Positions 11,113-64,000 of a stretch of DNA of 64,000 bases are shown here, piece after piece. The position numbers and the translations under genes are program-made. This stretch comes from Acidilobaceae archaeon (GTDB lineage: Archaea; Thermoproteota; Thermoprotei_A; Sulfolobales; Acidilobaceae), in assembly GCA_038897215.1 (NCBI GenBank), contig JAWAWX010000001.1:64001-128000 (forward strand). Reading direction: 5' to 3'. Every line of letters starts with the position of its first letter. Position 1 is the stretch's first letter. The notes under the pieces are model-generated. The model did not search any database and was not told where the DNA came from. It was given only the letters and a program-made list of their open reading frames with translations.

Positions 11113-13347
11113 CTAGTAGACCATCCTGATCTCCGAGACTGCTCTCTCCCTAGCGCGAGCCTTGATCTGCCTGGCTGTCTCAAGCCACCTCATGTAGAAC
11201 TCCATCATCTGCTTGGTTATGCTCGGCTTGACCTTCTCTAGAGCTATCTCGAAGTGCCTCCTCTCGACTATGGGCTTCTCGACGTTCTCCTTGAGTGCTA
11301 GTAGAGACGCTTCTCTCACTAGAGCAGCTAGGTCTGCTCCCGAGTAGCCTTCGGTTAGCCTAGCTATCTCTCTAAGGTCTACGTCTGGAGCTAGAGGCAC
11401 GTTGCGAGTGTGTATAGCCAGGATCTCCAGCCTGCTGTGCTCGTCGGGCGGCGGGACGAAGATTATCTTCTCGAATCTACCCGGTCTGAGTAGAGCTGGG
11501 TCGAGCATATCTGGTCTATTGGTGGCAGCTAAGACCACTACGCCTTCTAGGTCGGCTATGCCATCCATCTCTGTGAGTAGCTGGCTCACGATCCTCTCTA
11601 TGACGTAGCTACCGCCCACATCGGCTCCTCTAACGTGAGCTATAGCGTCTATCTCATCGAAGAAGATCACTGCAGGAGCGTGAAGCCTAGCTTTCCTGAA
11701 GATCTCCCTTATCCTCTGCTCGCTCTCACCAACCCACTTGCTCAACACCTCAGGCCCTCTCACAGCTATGAAGTTCGCATTGCTCTCAGTCGCTACAGCC
11801 TTAGCTAGAAGAGTCTTGCCGGTGCCGGGTGGGCCGACTAGGAGAACCCCCTTTGGTAGCTTTACTCCAGCCTTCACGAATATATCGGGGTGCTTGAACT
11901 GCCACTCTACTATCATCCGGAGCTCTTGCTTAACCTCCTCTAGCCCCCCTACGTCGCTCCACCTGACCTCGGGGATCTCTATCTGCACTTCTCTCAGACC
12001 GCTTGGAGTAATGCTCTTCAACGCACTCAAGAAGTCCTCCATCCTCACAACGATCTTGTCTAGGACTTCTGGCGGTATGACCTCCTGGTCTAGGTCTATC
12101 TCCGGCAGGTATCTCCTGAGAGCATTCATGGCTGCTTCTCTAGCTAGAGCTGCCAGGTCTGCTCCAGTATATCCCTTCGTCACCTCGGCTATCTTCTCTA
12201 AGTCTACGTCTTCTGCTAGCGGCATGTGTCTCGTGTGTATCTGCAGTATCTCCAGCCTCCCCTGCTTATCTGGTAGCGGGACCTCGATCTCTCTGTCGAA
12301 CCTGCCCGGTCTTCTCAGAGCGGGGTCCACGGCGTTGGGTCTGTTTGTCGCGGCTATCACTATGACTTGGCCTCTCTCAGTGAGTCCATCCATGAGGGCT
12401 AGAAGCTGAGCCACTACTCTCCTCTCGACTTCTCCGATCACCTCTTCTCTCTTAGGGGCTATAGCGTCTATCTCGTCTATGAATATTATAGCTGGAGCGT
12501 TCTTCTTAGCCTCCTCGAATATCTCTCTAAGCCTCTGCTCGCTCTCACCATAGAACTTGCTCATGATCTCGGGGCCGTTGATAGCTATGAAGTGCGCGTC
12601 TGTCTCGTTCGCTACAGCCTTGGCTAGAAGAGTCTTCCCGGTGCCCGGTGGGCCGTAGAGGAGTATGCCCTTGGGTGGCTCTATGCCGAGCCTCTTGAAG
12701 AGTTCAGGGTGCCTCAGGGGGAGCTCTACGAGCTCTCTTATCCTCTCTATGATGCGCGAGAGCCCTCCTATATCCTCGTAGGTGACTCTAGGAATAGCTC
12801 TGCCTTGTTGAGCTGGCTGTTCTAGAATGTCTACTATGGTGTTCTCCGTGATCACGACTGCTCCTCTAGGCTTAGTGTAGACTACCTGGAACTGTATCCC
12901 CTGAACGGCTATCGATACCACGACTATGTCTCCCTCGAGAACGGGAGTCCCTACGAGCTTCTTCTTGACCTGCTCTTTCACACCAGCGTCAGCCTTTATG
13001 AACACGAGTGGAGCGAGCTTTACTCTCAACGCGGGCTTGACGACAGCCTTCCTCACTATAACCTTATCCCCCTTGCTGATACCGCATAGCTTGCGCAGAA
13101 TACCATCCATCCTAATAACATCGAGCCCAGCGTCTTCAGGAAGAGCGGGCCAAACTGTAGCCACAGTCTTCTTCTTATTCTTGCCCTCGATTTCTACAAA
13201 GTCTCCTGGCGATACCCCCAGTTCTCTCATGATATCTACGTCTATCCTTACTCTCTTCCTACCAGTATCCTTGGGCTTCGCTTCAATAACGCGTAGCGTG
13301 ACCTCTCCGACTCCTCCCCCAGTCTCGCTTCTCTCAGTCTCGCTCAA
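11113..13347 (-). CDS. cdc48: Cdc48/VAT family AAA+ ATPase
   Basis: N-domain plus two AAA modules (GPPGTGKT twice, IFIDEID/FFDEID, RPGRF twice). Confidence 0.97.
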
Positions 13348-26724: not shown

Positions 26725-28035
26725 ATGGTGCTCCTCTTGCTCAAGCTGACTCTGTCTCCTACCGCTAGAGACCTCGATAGAGCTCTGGAGGCAGCATACA
26801 AGTCGCTCTACCAGGTTCTAGAAGCGTCGTCAGCTGAGGGCAGGCTCCTCGTCAGAGTCTACCCTAACCTAGACCCTATAGTCGCCGGAGTCATAGTCGC
26901 TACTCGAGCTCTCCGCGCTGGCGTCAGAGTATCCTTCAAGACCTCGCTAGAGCCTCCTCTCGAGATTCGAGAACCCTCCGTTCTAGTCGGCTACAGTAAG
27001 CTAGACTACTCGGCTCAAAACGTGACTAAGCCCATGATAGCTATAGCCTCAGGGTCTATAGACTCGATCCCCGTCCACGGAGCCACCTTCGTGGGAGGCC
27101 AGGGTAGCAATACGGCGGTAGCCGCTCTCATCGCGACGAGTGGAGTGTTCAGCGCTGGGACTGATATCGTGTCTCTAGCTCTACTAGGCGTCTACTCTGG
27201 GAGCTACGTGGACCCCGTTGGTAGATTCGCTGGGCTAGATAGAGTGCTAGTGGACAGGCTGTCAGCTAGCGCACCGAGCCTCGATGTGATCACCACGATC
27301 AAGGTGTATAAGCCCCACCTCTTCGACGTGTGTGAAGCGATATCGAGAACAGCGCACCCCCTCTACCTAGGGCTAGCCGGGAACCCTTGGAGATGCCAGG
27401 AGATCCTGGGGGTCGAGAAGTATAGGAGTGTCGCCGGGAAGCCTCTCTCCTCTATAACAGACCTGAAGGAGGTAGAGAGGCTAGCCAGGCTGGTCCTAGA
27501 CTATATGCATAGTAGCTTCAAGTCGAGGATCTCGGCTAAAGACATAGTAGCAGGCATCATGGTGTCCAAGAGTAGAGAGTCTATAGTCCAGGACTACAGG
27601 GAGGCGTCCGACGCAGTAGTCTACGTGTCGGACGCGGAGAAGAGCCTAGCTAGAGCAGTCGCCACTCTACTAGACTACTCGATAGAGTTGCCTCTAGCCG
27701 AGTCTCGTCTAGAGCTTCACGCGAAGAGCCTCTCCGACGCCGTCATAGGAGGGTCTATAGCGAGACTGGGAGGACCCCAAGGCCCTAAAGTCTACTTGGT
27801 CAGCGCTAAGCCAGAAGTCTCGCTGACACTACTCTGGAGAGCCTTGAAGACTCACGGCTTGATAGAGCCTGACTCCATTCTAGTCGTGGAGGAGAACGGA
27901 GAGCTTTCAGCCTCCCCTATTCAAATAGAAGAAGCTCTAGGCTACGGGGCTCTCAGAGAGCTCGCTAGAGCCGGTCTAGTATCATTCGATGGTGATAGAG
28001 CCTGGGTGGAGAGGAAAGCGCTAGGTGCGAGGTAG
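26725..28035 (+). CDS. Degenerate DHH/RecJ-like protein (Cdc45/GAN ortholog by context)
   Basis: Occupies the RecJ slot of the conserved rps15-recJ-pcc1-rps3ae string. Remnant motif I (YPNLDPIVAG), no DHH. Confidence 0.7.
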   Translation: MVLLLLKLTLSPTARDLDRALEAAYKSLYQVLEASSAEGRLLVRVYPNLDPIVAGVIVATRALRAGVRVSFKTSLEPPLEIREPSVLVGYSKLDYSAQNVTKPMIAIASGSIDSIPVHGATFVGGQGSNTAVAALIATSGVFSAGTDIVSLALLGVYSGSYVDPVGRFAGLDRVLVDRLSASAPSLDVITTIKVYKPHLFDVCEAISRTAHPLYLGLAGNPWRCQEILGVEKYRSVAGKPLSSITDLKEVERLARLVLDYMHSSFKSRISAKDIVAGIMVSKSRESIVQDYREASDAVVYVSDAEKSLARAVATLLDYSIELPLAESRLELHAKSLSDAVIGGSIARLGGPQGPKVYLVSAKPEVSLTLLWRALKTHGLIEPDSILVVEENGELSASPIQIEEALGYGALRELARAGLVSFDGDRAWVERKALGAR

Positions 28036-29072: not shown

Positions 29073-30311
29073 GTGAGGATCCTGGCTATACTAGCTGGAG
29101 GCAGAGGAGAGAGGCTGAAGCCTCTCACCGAGACCAGGCCCAAGGCTGTCCTCCCTGTTCTCGACGAGCCCCTAGTGTGCAGGCACGTGAGGCTAGCGAG
29201 CTCCTACTCGAGCTTCGACAAGGTCGTAGTCGTAGTATCCTACGAGGCTACTCAGGTAGCTAGAGCTCTCGAAGAGTGCGGAATCGAGGCAGAACTCGTG
29301 AACCAGGGGGGAGAGCTGGGCACGGGTGATGCCATAGCTAAAGCCATGGAGGCAGGGGGTCCCGGGGACTACACTCTGATTTACGGTGACGTCTACGTGA
29401 AAGAGGAGGTCTACGAGCTCCTCTCTAAGCTAAGAGCTCCCAGCGTGCTCCTAGCAGAAGCCAGAGACCCCTCTAGCTACGGGGTCGCTAGAGTGAGCCC
29501 CGACGGCTTCCTCGAGAGCATAGTAGAGAAGCCCTCGAGTCCTCTCGGCTCCTCTCTGGTTTTCGCTGGACTACTCAAGCTCAGCTACGAGCACTCAAGC
29601 TTCTTCAAGAACCTCAAAGCATCCCCCAGGGGGGAGCTAGAAGCCACAGATGCTCTAAACGAGATCTCGAAGAGCTACGAGGTCAAAGTAGCGGTAGCTC
29701 CTAGAGACTCGTGGGTAGACGTAGGCAGACCCTGGGATTTCCTCAGAGCAAACATCATGGCTCTCTCCGAGCTGAGAGAACAGGTGATCGAGGGCGATGT
29801 GAGCGAGAAAGCGGAAATCTCGGGGCCTGTGCTCGTGAAGAGAGGTAGCTCCATAAAGCCCTACACGGTCATCGAGGGACCAGCCTATGTGGGCGAGGAG
29901 GCTGTAGTAGGGCCTCTGGCTCACGTCAGAGGCTACACAGTAATCGGCAAGAGAGCCTTCATCGGGGCCTTCACAGAACTCAAGGCAAGCGTGGTGCTCG
30001 AGAGAGCGCGCTTACCACACTTGAACTACGCTGGGGATAGCGTGATAGGAGAGTACGCGAATCTAGGAGCTGGAACCAAGATAGCTAACCTCAGATTCGA
30101 CGAGCAAGAAGTCGAGATGACCGTCAAGGGAGTTAGAGTCAAGACGGGGCTCAGGAAGCTCGGCGCGGTGATAGGAGGGTACGCTAAGACTGGGATAAAC
30201 GTCTCGATAATGCCAGGCGTCAAGATAGGCTCCTACGCTATCATATACCCGGGGTGTGTTGTGAGTAGAGACGTAGAGCGAGGAGAGGTGCTCAACTGCT
30301 GGTCACGGTAG
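29073..30311 (+). CDS. glmU: Archaeal bifunctional sugar-1-phosphate nucleotidyltransferase/acetyltransferase (GlmU-like)
   Basis: LAGGRGERLKPLT, EKP, SPRGELE, hexapeptide LbH region with HLNYAGDS and NLGAGT. Confidence 0.88.
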   Translation: MRILAILAGGRGERLKPLTETRPKAVLPVLDEPLVCRHVRLASSYSSFDKVVVVVSYEATQVARALEECGIEAELVNQGGELGTGDAIAKAMEAGGPGDYTLIYGDVYVKEEVYELLSKLRAPSVLLAEARDPSSYGVARVSPDGFLESIVEKPSSPLGSSLVFAGLLKLSYEHSSFFKNLKASPRGELEATDALNEISKSYEVKVAVAPRDSWVDVGRPWDFLRANIMALSELREQVIEGDVSEKAEISGPVLVKRGSSIKPYTVIEGPAYVGEEAVVGPLAHVRGYTVIGKRAFIGAFTELKASVVLERARLPHLNYAGDSVIGEYANLGAGTKIANLRFDEQEVEMTVKGVRVKTGLRKLGAVIGGYAKTGINVSIMPGVKIGSYAIIYPGCVVSRDVERGEVLNCWSR

Positions 30312-31840
30312 GCCTAGCCTACCCGAGCGAGGAGCGAGTAGCGCTATCAAGCCTAGCCTATCATCTAGTAGGGGGGCTTCTCGAAGAGCTAGGAGTAGGA
30401 GTCAGAAGGTACTTCCTAGAAGATGGGAGCGTGAGGCATAGAGGCAGGTACAGAGAGAGCCCTAGGTCGAACGATGCGGTGATGGTGAGCATATCCTACG
30501 AGCTCCTCTACCTAGACGCAGCCAAAATGCTCTACTCTATGGGAATCCCCCCAGCTAGAAATGCGCGCTCCGAGAGCGACCCTATAGTCATCGCGGGAGG
30601 CCCGGCTCCCACGGGCAACCCTCTACCCCTATGGGAGATAGCGGACGCAGTAGTGATAGGCGAGTTCGAGGAGATAGCGGACAGCATAGTCGACGCTCTC
30701 TCCAAGCCCACTAGGCACTCTAGGCTGAGAGCTCTCTCCGAGATCGAGGGGGTTCTAGTTCCAGACTACACAGCTAGCCGAGTGAAGAGAGCCTACGTGA
30801 GAGACCTCGACTCAGCCTGGTACCCTCTCAGGCAAGAGCTCCCCCAGGGAGTAGAGCCCGTGTGGGGCAGAGTCTTCATGCTCGAGACTAGCAGAGGGTG
30901 CTTCAGAAAGTGCAGGTTCTGCCTGGAGGGGTGTATATTCAAGCCTAGGAGAGACAGGAGCTTCACCAAGCTTAGAGAGCTCTTGGAGACAGGAGTCTCC
31001 ATCAACAAGGTAGGCAAGGTATCCTTCTACAGCCTCTCATTCTTCGATAGCCCTAGCGGAGAGCGCATACTAGAACACGCTGTATCCCTCGGTCTCGAAG
31101 TCTCAGTGCCCAGTCTGAGAGCAGAGACTCTGACCGATAAGAGAGCTCTCCTCCTCGCTGAGGGGGGTCAGAGAACGGTCTCCATAGCCCCCGAGACTGG
31201 GAGTAGCGTGATAGCTAGAGCTATCATGAAGCTATCGGGGCGAGCGGGGGCTCTGAGAGCAGCCGAGATCCTGGCCTCAGCCGGAGTCAGGCAGGTCAAA
31301 GTCTACCTGATGGCGGGATTCCCGGGGGAGACCGAGGAAGACTTGAGCGACACTATCGGCATGATGCTTGACGTCAAGAAGATTCTGGAGAAGCGCGGAG
31401 CCAGAGTCAGAGCGTCAGTGAACCCCTTCATACCCAAGCCCTCAACCCCCCTTCAGTGGTTCGGCTTCAGCAGAGAGAGAGCCGAGAGAGCTCTAGAGCT
31501 CGCCCGGGCTCTCTCGAAGGCCGGCGTCGAGGCAGATGTTTACCCGCTAGACTACGCTGAGCTACAGACAGCTCTCGGGAGAGCGGACGCTACATCGTCT
31601 AGAGCCATAATCGAGACAGCTCTCGCTGGCGGAGGCTACAGGAGCCTCTTGAGAGCTCTCAAAGCGAGGTCGCGAAAGCCTCTGGTAGACTGGAGCCCTA
31701 GCGAGGAGCCAGCTTGGTCGATGCTGATAGAGGACTACTACACGAGCTCAGAGAGGCTCAGAGGAGAGCTACGAGAGTATGTGGATACTCTATCGAGCGC
31801 GGGTAGAGATGTGAAGCGACTCCTCCCCCAAGACTTCTAG
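30296..31840 (+). CDS. Radical SAM protein with N-terminal B12-binding-like domain (CUG start proposed)
   Basis: ETSRGCFRKCRFC, SISYEL, IAGGP, APETGS, FIPKP. The conserved-looking N-terminus VGLAYPS...ALSSLAY lies upstream of the ORF-track start at 30431. Confidence 0.85.
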   Translation: MLVTVGLAYPSEERVALSSLAYHLVGGLLEELGVGVRRYFLEDGSVRHRGRYRESPRSNDAVMVSISYELLYLDAAKMLYSMGIPPARNARSESDPIVIAGGPAPTGNPLPLWEIADAVVIGEFEEIADSIVDALSKPTRHSRLRALSEIEGVLVPDYTASRVKRAYVRDLDSAWYPLRQELPQGVEPVWGRVFMLETSRGCFRKCRFCLEGCIFKPRRDRSFTKLRELLETGVSINKVGKVSFYSLSFFDSPSGERILEHAVSLGLEVSVPSLRAETLTDKRALLLAEGGQRTVSIAPETGSSVIARAIMKLSGRAGALRAAEILASAGVRQVKVYLMAGFPGETEEDLSDTIGMMLDVKKILEKRGARVRASVNPFIPKPSTPLQWFGFSRERAERALELARALSKAGVEADVYPLDYAELQTALGRADATSSRAIIETALAGGGYRSLLRALKARSRKPLVDWSPSEEPAWSMLIEDYYTSSERLRGELREYVDTLSSAGRDVKRLLPQDF

Positions 31841-32663: not shown

Positions 32664-33098
32664 ATGTCTGTATCCTCAGCAGTCCTCAGAACTCACGTTC
32701 ACGCTACGGAGGACAGAGAGAAGGTCCTAGCTGCTCTCAGAAACACTCTCCCCCCGTCTCTCAGAGAGACCGTGGAGGTCGAGAGCGAGTCTTACGAGGG
32801 GCACTACGGGAACAGGATCGAGGTCCTCACAGTGGAGCTGAGAGACTCCGAGGAGGCCGGAGCGCTCCTCTCCTACCTCCTAGAGTCTCTAGGAGACGCG
32901 GATAGGAGGCTACTCCTCGCTACTCTAGCAGAGAGAGTGGATGAGAGCGGCTCGCTCTACCTGAGGCTCGACAAGCAGAGCGCCTACAGAGGCGTGCTTG
33001 AGCTAAGCGATGGAGACGACGTTATCAAGATTGAGATACGAGTAGAGGGCGGCAGGAGAGGAGCTCTAAGGATACTCAAAGAGGTGCTCTCGAGATAG
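32664..33098 (+). CDS. Conserved archaeal RNA-binding protein (COG1325/DUF54)
   Basis: HATEDREKV, GHYGN, LYLRLDKQ. Canonical position between rpl15e and rnp3. Confidence 0.9.
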   Translation: MSVSSAVLRTHVHATEDREKVLAALRNTLPPSLRETVEVESESYEGHYGNRIEVLTVELRDSEEAGALLSYLLESLGDADRRLLLATLAERVDESGSLYLRLDKQSAYRGVLELSDGDDVIKIEIRVEGGRRGALRILKEVLSR

Positions 33099-60650: not shown

Positions 60651-62600
60651 GTGGCTAGAGACTCTATGAGTAGCCTGGACCTCCACGTCTGGGTTTCTCG
60701 AGGAGAAGCTGTAGACTGCTGGATCGACAACCTCTACGGAGGCTCCTCGCTCTTCTACGCTAAGCTCAGATGCAGGGAGGAGACGCGGATTCTAGCGCTA
60801 GAGCCCTCTAGGAGGCTCCACTTCACGCGAAGACCGTACCCTGAGGGAGCGGAGGGCTTCGTGGTTATGTTGAGGAGACTCGCTAGAGATAGGAGGATAG
60901 TCGGGGTCTCCCAGCTAGGCTTCGATAGAGTGGCGGTGCTAGAGCTCACGGGAGGCTACCGTCTCTACATAGAGCTCCTGCCTCGAGGAGTAGCAGTGCT
61001 CGTAGACGACGCGGGCGTAGTAAAAGCTCTCTCCCGCTCTCTTAAGACGAGAGACAGAGAGCTAGCAGTAGGCAGAGAGTACACTCCCCCTCCTCTCCAG
61101 CAACTCAACCCATTCCTCCTAGACGCTGAGAGATTGTTGAAGGCTGTGAGAGGAGGGAGAGACTTGGTGAGAGGGCTTGTGAGAGGGCTCGGGCTACCGG
61201 GAGAGGCGGCTGAGGAAGCAGTGTACAGAAGCGGGGTCTCAGCGGAGTTGAGCCCCGCGGCTTTGAGTTCCAGCGATGCGGAGAGAGTAGTGAGAGCTCT
61301 CAGCGAGATATACGGAGAGTCTCTGCAGGGAAGAGGCTACCTAATTCTAGACGAGAGAGGGAGTCCTCGAGAAGCCTCTCCCTTCAAGCCTCTGAGAGCT
61401 CCCCCGGAGAGAGTAGTTGCTCTAGAGACTCTAGACGAGGCTCTCGATGAACTCTTCTCAGCTAAGCTAGTAGAGCCACTCAGCGTCTCCGAGGAGGTGT
61501 CGGCTGAGAGAGCTAGACTAGAGGCTAGCCTAGAGGAGGCTAGGGCTAGAGCTGAACTCTACCTAGAGGAGGCTAGGAGGCTAGAGGAGGCTGCGGAGAG
61601 GCTGGCTTCTAGCTACGAGCTAGCTGAGAGCATAGTGGAGTGCGTCTCTAGACTCTGGAGAGCTAGAGCAGCGAGAGAGTGTAGTGGGGTAGTCGCCGTA
61701 GACTACTCCAGAGGCGTCTACAGCTTTGAAATCCAGGGGTTCAGATACGATGCTAGATACGGTGAAACCCCCCAGTCTATCATAACGAGACTCTACAAAG
61801 AAGCCGGCGAGGCTAGAGCTAGAGCCGAGAAGGCTCTAGAAGCGAGCGCTGAGATAGAGTCGAGGCTTAGAGAGCTGGAGACCAAGGCTAGAGTTAGAGC
61901 AATCCAGGCTAGAGCTAGAGCTAGGAGCGTGTTCTGGTTCGAGAAGTACAGGTGGAGCGTTACAACCAGCGGGCTCCTCGTGCTAGCCGGGAGAGACGCT
62001 AGCCAGAACGAGTCGCTCGTCAGGAAGCACCTCGAGGACAGCGATATATTCATGCACGCTGACATTCAGGGAGCTCCAGCAGTAGTCATCAAGACTCGGG
62101 GAGCCGAGGTTAGGAGAGAAGATGTGGAAGACGCTGCAGTCATAGCAGCATGCTATAGCAAAGCTTGGAAAGCAGGGCTCGCGTTGATAGACGTATTCTG
62201 GGTTCGGGGAAGCCAGGTCTCCAAATCCCCCCCTCCAGGCGAGTATCTGAGAAGAGGGAGCTTCATGGTATACGGGAGGAGAGAGTACGTCAAGACAGAG
62301 CTAGCTTTAGCTATAGGGGTAGCCCTAGACCCCGGGGGAGCTCCGCTAGTCCTAGCTGGTAGCGAGAGAGTAGTCTCGAAGCACTCCATAGCCTACGCTA
62401 TCATAGTTCCGGGGAGGAGGAGCTTGGAGGAGGCGGAGCTCTTGAGGAAAGCTCTCGCAGAAGCTGTCGATGAGCAGGATAGAGTCTACGTTCTAGCTGT
62501 TAGAGAGCAGGAGCTCAAAGACAAGATCCCGGGGGCCTTCAGCATACTCAAGGTCTCGAGAGGCGGGAGAGAGGTTTTCGACCCGAGGCTCTACGCTTAG
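60651..62600 (+). CDS. rqcH: NFACT/RqcH (Rqc2/NEMF homolog) ribosome quality control factor
   Basis: FDR, IEL, coiled coil, WFEKYRW, GRDASQNE, HADIQGAP, QVSKSPPPGEYL. Confidence 0.92.
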   Translation: MARDSMSSLDLHVWVSRGEAVDCWIDNLYGGSSLFYAKLRCREETRILALEPSRRLHFTRRPYPEGAEGFVVMLRRLARDRRIVGVSQLGFDRVAVLELTGGYRLYIELLPRGVAVLVDDAGVVKALSRSLKTRDRELAVGREYTPPPLQQLNPFLLDAERLLKAVRGGRDLVRGLVRGLGLPGEAAEEAVYRSGVSAELSPAALSSSDAERVVRALSEIYGESLQGRGYLILDERGSPREASPFKPLRAPPERVVALETLDEALDELFSAKLVEPLSVSEEVSAERARLEASLEEARARAELYLEEARRLEEAAERLASSYELAESIVECVSRLWRARAARECSGVVAVDYSRGVYSFEIQGFRYDARYGETPQSIITRLYKEAGEARARAEKALEASAEIESRLRELETKARVRAIQARARARSVFWFEKYRWSVTTSGLLVLAGRDASQNESLVRKHLEDSDIFMHADIQGAPAVVIKTRGAEVRREDVEDAAVIAACYSKAWKAGLALIDVFWVRGSQVSKSPPPGEYLRRGSFMVYGRREYVKTELALAIGVALDPGGAPLVLAGSERVVSKHSIAYAIIVPGRRSLEEAELLRKALAEAVDEQDRVYVLAVREQELKDKIPGAFSILKVSRGGREVFDPRLYA

Positions 62601-63832
62601 GTTATAGCCGAGTCTTTACATACAGTCCCTCTCCGTACTACTCTATGAGGCCACACCTTGCACCTCGAGAGAACAGCTCCATCCTCTATTATCGCGTTAT
62701 CGCCTACAACGCTATCCTCAATTCTCACCGACGAGCCTATCGTCGCGTGCCTCCCGATAACGCTGTTCTCGATCGAAGTCTTGCTCCCAATGCTACACCT
62801 ATCCATTACTATAGACCTAACTATTGAGACCTCGTCCCCGACTATCACGAAATTGTCTATCACAGAGTCCTCTAGAGCTACTCTAGAGCCTAGCTTGACG
62901 TGTCTGCCGAGGAGCACGTCACCACTCACTCTCAAATCACCCTCCTCTACTCTCTTCACGACCTCAGCTTGGAGTCTCTTTGAGAGCGCGGTTCTACCCT
63001 GCATCTTGAGACCCCTGTACTCTGTCTCCACATCTAGGAGGTCTCTCGTGAAGCTCTTCACGACGTAGAGCGAGGCTTCTATCAGCCTCTCGGGAGTCCC
63101 CACATCGAACCAGAACCCCTCCAGCTTGTAGCCCGCTACTCTCTCCCCCTTCTCGATCACTCTCGGTATCACGTGCATCCCGAAGTCTCCCTCTCCTCTC
63201 TCGATCATCTCGGAGAACTCTCCGGACAGCAGGAACTCGACCATCTCTCTCGATAGCAGGTATATGCCTGTATTGGCTAGATTGGAGGGAGCTTGACTGG
63301 GGTCTTTGGGCTTCTCTACAAACCCTCTAATCAAGCCCTCTGAGTCTAGCTTGGCGACACCGAAGTGCTTGAGCTCTCTCGGGTCGCTGATCTCTTTGAG
63401 GGCTATCGTCATGAAAGCCTTCTTAGACTCGTGGTACTCATACATGTCTCTAACGTTCACCGAGGCCAGAGTGTCGCACTGGACTACGAGAACCGGCTCT
63501 CTTATGCTGTAGTACTCTAGGAGTAGCCTCACGGAGTGAGCGTTGCCCACAGTGCTCGCGTTGGGCTGGTAGCGGACTCTGACCACCTTGTACTCTCTCC
63601 CCCCGAGAGGGACTCTGAAGTAGGAGCCTAGGTGGTCGTGTAGAGTCTTGTAGTTAGTATACCCGCTGACGCCCAGATAGAACTCCTCGATTCCCTCTAG
63701 AGCTAGGAGCTGTACTATGAAGTCTATGAGGAATCTGTTGGCTAGCCTCACCATAGCTTTAGATGTCTCTACCGTGAGCGGGTAGAGGCGAGTGCCGAGC
63801 CCGCCCACCGGGATCAAGGCTTTCGTGATTAT
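62597..63832 (-). CDS. NDP-sugar pyrophosphorylase family protein with LbH domain (AUA start proposed)
   Basis: KALIPVGGLGTRLYPLT, FVEKP, NTGIY, WFDVGTP, hexapeptide tail. The ORF-track TTG at 63817 cuts the first beta strand. Confidence 0.88.
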   Translation of the reverse strand: MITKALIPVGGLGTRLYPLTVETSKAMVRLANRFLIDFIVQLLALEGIEEFYLGVSGYTNYKTLHDHLGSYFRVPLGGREYKVVRVRYQPNASTVGNAHSVRLLLEYYSIREPVLVVQCDTLASVNVRDMYEYHESKKAFMTIALKEISDPRELKHFGVAKLDSEGLIRGFVEKPKDPSQAPSNLANTGIYLLSREMVEFLLSGEFSEMIERGEGDFGMHVIPRVIEKGERVAGYKLEGFWFDVGTPERLIEASLYVVKSFTRDLLDVETEYRGLKMQGRTALSKRLQAEVVKRVEEGDLRVSGDVLLGRHVKLGSRVALEDSVIDNFVIVGDEVSIVRSIVMDRCSIGSKTSIENSVIGRHATIGSSVRIEDSVVGDNAIIEDGAVLSRCKVWPHRVVRRGTVCKDSAIT

Positions 63833-64000
63833 GACTCGAGCACCTCTCCCCGCTCTTCACTCATTAGATCGCCTCGCTCAGCTAATATACTTCTCCTTTC
63901 TCGTCTCAGGAGGCTCGATAGCTCTCTGTAGCCGCATCTCTCTAGAGCCTCAGCGGGCTCTCTGAGAGCGAAGACTTCTCTGAGCCACCTCTCGAAGTCT
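63829..64000 (-). CDS. 3' end of a gene truncated by the window edge (DUF5752-like DFxxW motif)
   Basis: Frame DFERWLREVFALREPAEALERC...GEVLES* ending at TAA 63831-63829. Confidence 0.55.
   Translation of the reverse strand, partial: DFERWLREVFALREPAEALERCGYRELSSLLRRERRSILAERGDLMSEERGEVLES

Follow-up and report, generated by a model that had tools for sequence, protein, structure and literature searches.

We propose that the gene of an NDP-sugar synthase in an uncultured Acidilobaceae archaeon from a hot spring, which lies at 62597-63832 on the minus strand of the 64,000-nucleotide stretch analysed here (the window, bases 64001-128000 of a single-contig genome of 1.16 Mb with 54% GC), probably begins at the AUA codon at 63832-63830, or within one codon of it, by near-cognate initiation directed by a Shine-Dalgarno (SD) sequence. 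The more general part of this proposal, that the enzyme has a non-canonical start upstream of the TTG used in the public gene call, is very probable, as judged from the sequence and its comparison with relatives. The elements of the site are as follows.

62597 to 63832, minus strand: NDP-sugar synthase gene (NTP_transferase plus left-handed beta-helix), 411 codons plus stop, frame intact
63857 to 63859, minus strand: in-frame TGA that closes the frame upstream, from the sequence reading
63841 to 63846, minus strand: GAGGTG, the Shine-Dalgarno sequence, within the 3' end of the GH57 gene upstream, 8 nucleotides (nt) before the ATA
63830 to 63832, minus strand: ATA, the proposed initiation codon, sole codon at the optimal SD spacing (ATA at SD+7 in the sister species)
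63829 to 63831, minus strand: TAA stop of the upstream GH57 gene, overlapping the ATA (ATAA), three bases shared
63815 to 63817, minus strand: TTG, the start in the public gene call (406 amino acids; protein P0002 begins MIPVGG)

The minus strand reads TGA(63859-57) AGA GCG GGG AGA GGT GCT CGA GTC ATA(63832-30) ATC ACG AAA GCC TTG(63817-15) ATC CCG GTG GGC GGG CTC GGC ACT CGC. The GAGGTG is a perfect 6-nt complement of the 3' end of this genome's own 16S rRNA, ...GGATCACCTCC (...CACCUCC), and is separated from the ATA by the spacer ctcgagtc (63840-63833, minus strand). Between the TGA at 63859-63857 and the TTG at 63817 there is no ATG, GTG or TTG in frame, so that the TTG is the sole canonical start; its distance from the SD is 23 nt, while the first canonical starts genome-wide peak at 7-8 nt. 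It is noted that a first-pass annotation of the same DNA had already placed the GAGGTG, the 8 nt, the ATA, the TAA overlap, the in-frame TGA and the TTG at 63817, all of which are indeed present at the coordinates it gave.

The codons between the ATA and the TTG can be judged by comparison with G001 (44.6% GC), another species of this genus; its assembly is independent, its whole genome was compared, and its orthologous protein is 75% identical. The stretch reads ATA ATC ACG AAA GCC TTG in this genome and ATA ATA ACG AAG GTT CTC (then ATC CCG) in G001. The changes ATC/ATA, AAA/AAG and TTG/CTC are synonymous and the change GCC/GTT (Ala/Val) is conservative, and from these three synonymous changes and one conservative change it follows that the codons upstream of the TTG are coding. 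The TTG itself is replaced by CTC in G001 and by CTC, CTG, TTC, ATC or TTA in other relatives. Moreover, position 1 of the PF00483 profile corresponds to the AAA Lys codon, two codons 5' of the TTG, and in PDB homologues with chains numbered from Met-1 it is residue 2 that aligns to this same Lys. The TTG at 63817-63815 is more likely Leu-6 of the protein than its start. The synonymous changes, the Pfam and PDB alignments and the orthologue starts described below all agree with the earlier view that a start upstream of the TTG is needed.

The enzyme belongs to a widespread group, with 114 orthologues across 251 genomes of the order. It matches PF00483 across residues 4-256 (E=1e-37) and carries PF25084, PF00132 and PF24894 (Hexapep/LbH) at the C-terminus, and its N-terminal G-G-x-G-T-R-L loop reads PVGGLGTRLYPLT. 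Against the NCBIfam equivalogs it scores below every cut-off (155 bits vs 424.9 for the GlgC model TIGR02091), and its neighbour, the GH57 gene, may point to a role in alpha-glucan metabolism.

The 5' regions of 75 of these orthologues, from across the order, were compared. In four groups (f5, f7, f3g35 and f8) an ATG, GTG or TTG stands at the position aligned to the ATA or one codon before it, and in the Sulfolobaceae-type genomes (f13) an ATG usually stands five codons further upstream (range 3-6). Within the archaeon's own family, 16 of the 23 orthologues have an ATA, ATT or ATC (ATH) 6-9 nt behind an SD; eight of them have no canonical start at all, their ATA, ATT or ATC lying 4-10 nt behind an SD-like motif, and the other eight share the SD-backed codon and have in addition a GTG further upstream, mostly within the SD. 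In five of the remaining seven a canonical start occupies the expected place; of the other two, one is ambiguous and one unclear. Nine genomes of the families f3 and f10 have neither a canonical start nor an SD-backed ATH candidate, and in one additional f3 genome the sole candidate is an ATC behind a weak SD. One genus of the family (g7) has ATA in 4 genomes and GTG or TTG in 3, at the same place within one codon, and the orthologues of cultured Acidilobus and of Caldisphaera type have ATA or ATT at SD+6-7. The SD-backed ATH in the relatives falls at aligned positions -2 to 0, the exact N-terminus shifting by a codon or two.

The public records of these orthologues differ in how they deal with this start. 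In the NCBI record of one relative, P0006 (MAVSKALIP), the protein is started at this very ATA. By contrast, the calls P0017, P0020, P0069, P0078, P0083 and P0089, from genomes with no canonical start, begin at an internal Met ('M[VI]RFLN...') and give proteins of 385-386 amino acids without the GGxGTRLYPLT nucleotide-binding loop. These calls, lacking the essential GGxGTR loop, cannot be correct.

Two tests were carried out over the whole genome. In the first one, the in-frame codons that lie behind perfect 6-mer SDs, between the upstream stop and the first ATG, GTG or TTG, were counted at spacings of 7-8 nt and at control spacings of 13-26 nt. The 18 codons that are one-base neighbours of ATG, GTG or TTG make up 33 of the 53 codons at spacing 7-8 and 77 of the 240 at the controls (p=5e-5), and the subset CTG, ATA, ATT and ATC makes up 11/53 vs 10/240 (p=2e-4), with CTG, TTA, ATA and ACG as the leading single codons at SD+7/8. 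Reversed, reverse-complemented and scrambled SD motifs gave no enrichment (p>=0.17). The enrichment is replicated in G001 (9/33 vs 12/161, p=0.003), where it should be kept in mind that the genomes of relatives do not count as independent samples. For a related genus (G106), 800 kb of sequence gave no significant enrichment at the level of the class (p=0.25-0.34); in that region (G106:C1:1-800000, loci L167-L206) ACG alone reaches 6/28 vs 3/177 at the control spacings, a comparison made post hoc. The preferred near-cognate codon seems to differ between genera. An annotation-free histogram of the triplets behind all SD 6-mers near starts of open reading frames (ORFs) was also tried and set aside, the ATA signal being drowned there by internal Ile codons.

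In the second test, stop-to-stop ORFs of this genome were compared with those of the whole G001 genome (1120 pairs, median identity 70%), and a gene was retained when 3 or more residues that are identical in both genomes, yet specified by different codons, lie upstream of its first canonical start. This gave 56 genes, 54 of which are at least 100 codons long; a few of them are of another nature, namely a frameshift in a run of seven T, a conserved in-frame TAG in cimA, and split genes. The Pfam domains of the proteins with near-cognate starts begin 20-70 residues before the first canonical start. Taking the two independent tests together, near-cognate initiation at CUG, AUA, ACG, UUA and UCG is, as predicted from the DNA, a habit of several dozen genes in this Acidilobaceae genus. 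The putative start codons of representative genes are listed below.

HypA: CTG in this genome, TTG in G001
AP-endonuclease-fold protein: TCG in this genome (GGAGGTG + 7 nt), TTG in G001
RidA: CTG in this genome, CTG in G001
Radical SAM protein: CTG CTG in this genome, CTG CTG in G001
Aldo/keto reductase: CTG in this genome, ACG in G001
Two small genes: ACG in this genome, TTG or ATG in G001
TGT: TTA in this genome (SD+7); G001 not aligned, with a GTG a few codons upstream

In HypA (G000:C1:679371-679769, minus strand; PF01155 profile positions 2-108) the start codon stands directly before the His of the N-terminal metal-binding motif, and because the codon before this His is CTG here and TTG in G001, the CTG would have to be read as the initiator Met. 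Two simpler forms of the comparison were rejected. A naive count of BLAST matches starting at least 4 codons upstream of the canonical start gave 253 genes and was inflated by conserved SDs, by TATA boxes or promoters and by a tRNA gene; a table of the codons aligned to the partner's first canonical start was too noisy, as N-termini shift by a codon or two.

From these data we infer that AUA is the codon used at the NDP-sugar synthase and that it is read as methionine, by the following pathway. The GAGGUG, 8 nt upstream, would position the 30S subunit, and the ordinary initiator tRNA with anticodon CAU would then pair with the AUA despite the mismatch at the third position, the strong SD allowing the mismatched codon to pass. 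The product would be a protein of 411 amino acids beginning with M-I-T-K-A-L-I-P-V-G-G. In this genome the four-base overlap with the GH57 gene would probably add some translational coupling; it would not be what makes the AUA work.

Such starts have known counterparts in bacteria. ATA, ATT, ATC and CTG are alternative initiators in NCBI genetic code table 11; AUU, AUA and CUG starts are known in bacteria, the E. coli genes infC and pcnB having AUU starts behind an SD, and the usual view of bacterial near-cognate starts is that they keep the rate of translation low. As in infC and pcnB, the codon differs from AUG by one base, follows a strong SD at the usual distance, would be read by the ordinary initiator tRNA and is conserved among relatives. 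Unlike infC and pcnB, the gene belongs to an archaeon with the eukaryote-type factors aIF1, aIF1A and aIF2, has no evident autoregulatory logic of the infC type, and resides in a genome that also uses CTG, ACG, TTA and TCG.

Several observations weigh against the start at the AUA and have to be set beside the evidence for it. The TTG start removes five residues only, so the enzyme need not be inactivated by it, and two other near-cognate codons, GTC (SD+5) and ATC (SD+11), are also in frame. In the first genome-wide test, where the peak spacing and the codon classes were partly picked after inspection of the data, ATA alone is weakly enriched (4/53 vs 4/240, p=0.04), and one of these four, the ATA at genome position 1021329 (SD+8), was discarded, G001 having an in-frame stop there. 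Finally, nothing in the initiation machinery that was inspected, namely aIF1 and the initiator tRNA, explains a relaxed start selection: aIF1 is present, intact and ATG-initiated, and the initiator tRNA has the CAU anticodon, A1:U72 and three G:C pairs in the anticodon stem. The first-pass annotation had suggested aIF1, aIF2 and the initiator tRNA as places to look for altered fidelity; of these, aIF1 and the initiator tRNA look ordinary.

The most serious competitor is translation that starts at the TTG at 63817, with ribosomes that end at the GH57 TAA sliding 12 nt and reinitiating, or with initiation de novo, and with the upstream codons left untranslated. It is true that this is the sole canonical start in frame, that TTG is a common start codon in this genome, that the database protein P0002 is so called and that post-termination reinitiation within a short window is documented (PMC6728339). 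However, the SD is then 23 nt away instead of at the peak of 7-8 nt, the five codons preceding the TTG change in the manner of coding sequence, the alignments to Pfam and PDB start two residues ahead of it, this codon is CTC in G001 and another Leu, Ile or Phe codon in relatives, and G001 has no nearby upstream stop from which ribosomes could reinitiate. We regard the TTG start as unlikely. It is still less likely, and indeed very improbable, that an adjacent near-cognate codon in frame is the true start, that is, GTC at 63835-63833 or ATC at 63829-63827. Each differs by one base from a canonical start, and the SD-backed ATH of relatives is spread over aligned positions -2 to 0, but in this genome the ATA alone is both at the optimal spacing and conserved in G001, where the flanking candidates are ATT at SD+4 and ATA at SD+10. 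As for an assembly or sequencing error, or a decaying gene that has lost its start codon, the genome comes from an uncultured organism and has at least one homopolymer frameshift elsewhere (a run of seven T near 730205). The chance of such an explanation is nevertheless almost negligible, the same ATA being found in the independent assembly of the other species and in many genomes, and the frame of 411 codons being intact and 75% identical to the G001 orthologue; the dismissal of sequencing error in the first reading of this DNA is upheld.

A further proposal, made in the same first reading, was that the ATA and the overlapping stop together form a lineage-wide mode of translational coupling, in which AUA restarts only because of its overlap with the upstream stop (AUAA or AUAG). 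It was based on this site and on a second one in the window, at the RNase P p30 gene.

33081 to 33098, plus strand: start of RNase P p30 (rnp3), GAGGTG-8 nt-ATA-G with an ATAG overlap; G001 retains the ATA, the SD and the overlap alike

This second AUA case is genuine, its SD and ATA being kept in G001, and PF01876 (RNase_P_p30) begins at residue 17 of the protein, before the first canonical start at residue 20. The pattern GAGGTG-N8-ATA has 3 matches in the window vs 0.47 expected, and 3 were reached in 1 of 100 shuffles; the matches are the present site, the rnp3 site at 33081-33097 and one at 12170-12186 on the minus strand. The last lies within an ORF of 744 amino acids (11113-13347, minus strand) and is probably an internal coincidence of Glu-Val...Ile.

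The overlaps were counted over the genome with a gene set that is an ad hoc crude selection of 1204 ORFs covering 90% of the genome, not the output of a trained gene finder, an overlap being scored when the stop of a gene lies one base inside the open frame of the next gene. ATA(A/G) overlaps were found in 14/116 cases (12%), to be compared with GTA in 35/220 (16%), TTA in 9/94 (10%) and CTA in 25/396 (6%); this count, which the first reading had named as able to refute its proposal, reveals no excess over the GTA, TTA and CTA controls. By comparison, where ATGA, GTGA or TTGA stands at the end of a gene, each serves as such an overlap in 37-46% of cases. Of the ATA(A/G) sites, two alone, the present one and rnp3, combine an SD of 5 nt or more with the absence of a canonical start upstream and the presence of one 5 or more codons downstream.

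At the present gene the overlap is itself a local feature, owing to the upstream neighbour.

63829 to 64000, minus strand: 3' end of the GH57 glycoside hydrolase (PF03065, E=3e-73; 507 amino acids), which continues beyond the window end

The hydrolase ends with ...GEVLES-TAA, the TAA being at 63831-63829, and its C-terminus is about 30 residues longer here (RRERRSILAERGDLMSEERGEVLES) than that of the sister-species GH57 (L001:1630-3153). It is because of this extension that the ATAA overlap exists in this genome. The GH57 of G001 (77% identical) terminates 74 nt upstream, and the SD and the ATA are kept there in an intergenic leader; in the 75 orthologues, an upstream ORF ends at the start codon in only two, this genome and one other.

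The dedicated coupling thus proposed can point to two SD-8 nt-ATA-stop sites within one window of 64 kb, to the conserved rnp3 overlap and to the very common canonical ATGA, GTGA and TTGA overlaps of this genome. Against it stand the lack of an ATA(A/G) excess over the 1204-ORF set and of any further SD-backed case, the absence of the overlap at this gene in G001 and in 73 of the 75 orthologues, with the SD-ATH retained, and the fact that most of the other near-cognate starts that were found (RidA, the aldo/keto reductase, HypA and others) are not at overlaps. We rejected the overlap as a defining feature and consider AUA restarts of this dedicated kind highly unlikely; at this gene the ATAA overlap is probably not part of the start mechanism. 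What stands of the lineage-wide habit claimed in the first reading is that unannotated non-canonical starts occur at the level of the genus; that they are specific to ATA does not hold, CTG, TTA, ACG and TCG being at least as frequent.

Termination-reinitiation has been demonstrated at ATGA and TGATG overlaps in archaea and bacteria by Huber et al. 2019 (PMC6728339), with only overlaps of the AUG/GUG type having been tested. The present pair resembles theirs in the four-base overlap of stop and start, with the SD inside the upstream gene, and in being from a genome rich in ATGA, GTGA and TTGA. It differs from them in that the restart codon is non-canonical and the overlap is not conserved for this gene. 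Ribosome profiling of Haloferax volcanii by Gelsinger et al. 2020 (PMC7261190) found about 30% of the putative alternative initiation sites to be near-cognates of AUG, which were set aside as possible false positives. The likeness to the present data is that archaeal ribosomes may visit such codons; the difference is that conserved housekeeping genes would here have no other possible start than the near-cognate codon. In a 2020 review of archaeal initiation the start codons given are AUG, GUG and UUG only (PMC7531240), and in the literature on AUA and other near-cognate starts in archaea we found no direct report for Thermoproteota.

A broader hypothesis can be put forward, to which we give an even chance. 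Although aIF1 is intact and the initiator tRNA normal, start selection at SD-led cistrons would be relaxed in this genus, so that for roughly 40-50 conserved genes (about 4%) the sole start could be any one-base neighbour of a canonical start, such as CUG, AUA, ACG, UUA or even UCG; the codon preference would be another one in at least one sister genus, and the weak AUA or AUU on the NDP-sugar synthase would be kept throughout the family as an expression set-point.

There would be consequences for annotation. Most gene finders follow the AUG/GUG/UUG rule, and the present enzyme is thereby shortened by five residues. In relatives the same rule deletes the whole nucleotide-binding loop, as in the calls of 385-386 amino acids, and in this genome RidA would lose the greater part of its sequence and the HypA, TGT and AP-endonuclease-fold domains their first 20-50 residues. 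If near-cognate starts hold for a few percent of the genes of a crenarchaeal lineage, the annotations of metagenome-assembled genomes and the counts of pan-genomes and pseudogenes would be biased, and archaeal start selection based on aIF1 and aIF2 would tolerate more mismatch behind a strong SD than has been assumed. It would also be expected that the cultured Acidilobus and Caldisphaera strains, the orthologues of which have the same ATA or ATT, allow a direct experimental test.

Some further genes are noted here. A gene of 94 codons has a CTG at 28002-28004 on the plus strand (genome 92002), 7 nt behind GGTGAT, with the first canonical start 39 codons downstream; G001 has a TTG at the aligned codon, and the conserved extension contains 14 synonymous differences. 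The radical SAM gene (PF19864 + PF04055) has, at 30281-30301 on the plus strand (genome 94281-94301), GAGGTG-ctcaa-CTG CTG with every base conserved in G001. A canonical start first appears about 45 codons further on here and about 30 in G001, and the public-style ORF at 30431-31840 would be 45 residues short. In G106, six genes have an ACG 7-8 nt behind a perfect SD 6-mer (five of them at 7 nt), and a canonical start first occurs 8-36 codons after it.

Three other loci have features of a different kind. In a cimA-like gene (G000:C1:780750-780800, plus strand) the reading is GTG GTG GTT TAG AAA TCC..., with the TAG and its flanks conserved in G001, 39 conserved codons with LDTTLRDG after the TAG, and no canonical start for 43-53 codons; this suggests either read-through of the in-frame TAG or a three-codon leader ORF followed by a restart. 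At G000:C1:730180-730230 (plus strand) the run of seven T mentioned above breaks a frame that is continuous in G001, where TTT CTT T is found, which points either to an assembly error in the homopolymer or to a -1 slippery site. Note also that in a gene of 279 codons (G000:C1:342330-342400, minus strand) 54-60 codons pass before a canonical start occurs, in this genome as in G001. In its conserved block (GATGGAATTCCGCCAATATC) the initial 20 nt do not differ between the two species and include an out-of-frame ATG, and this may be a recoding or frameshift site.

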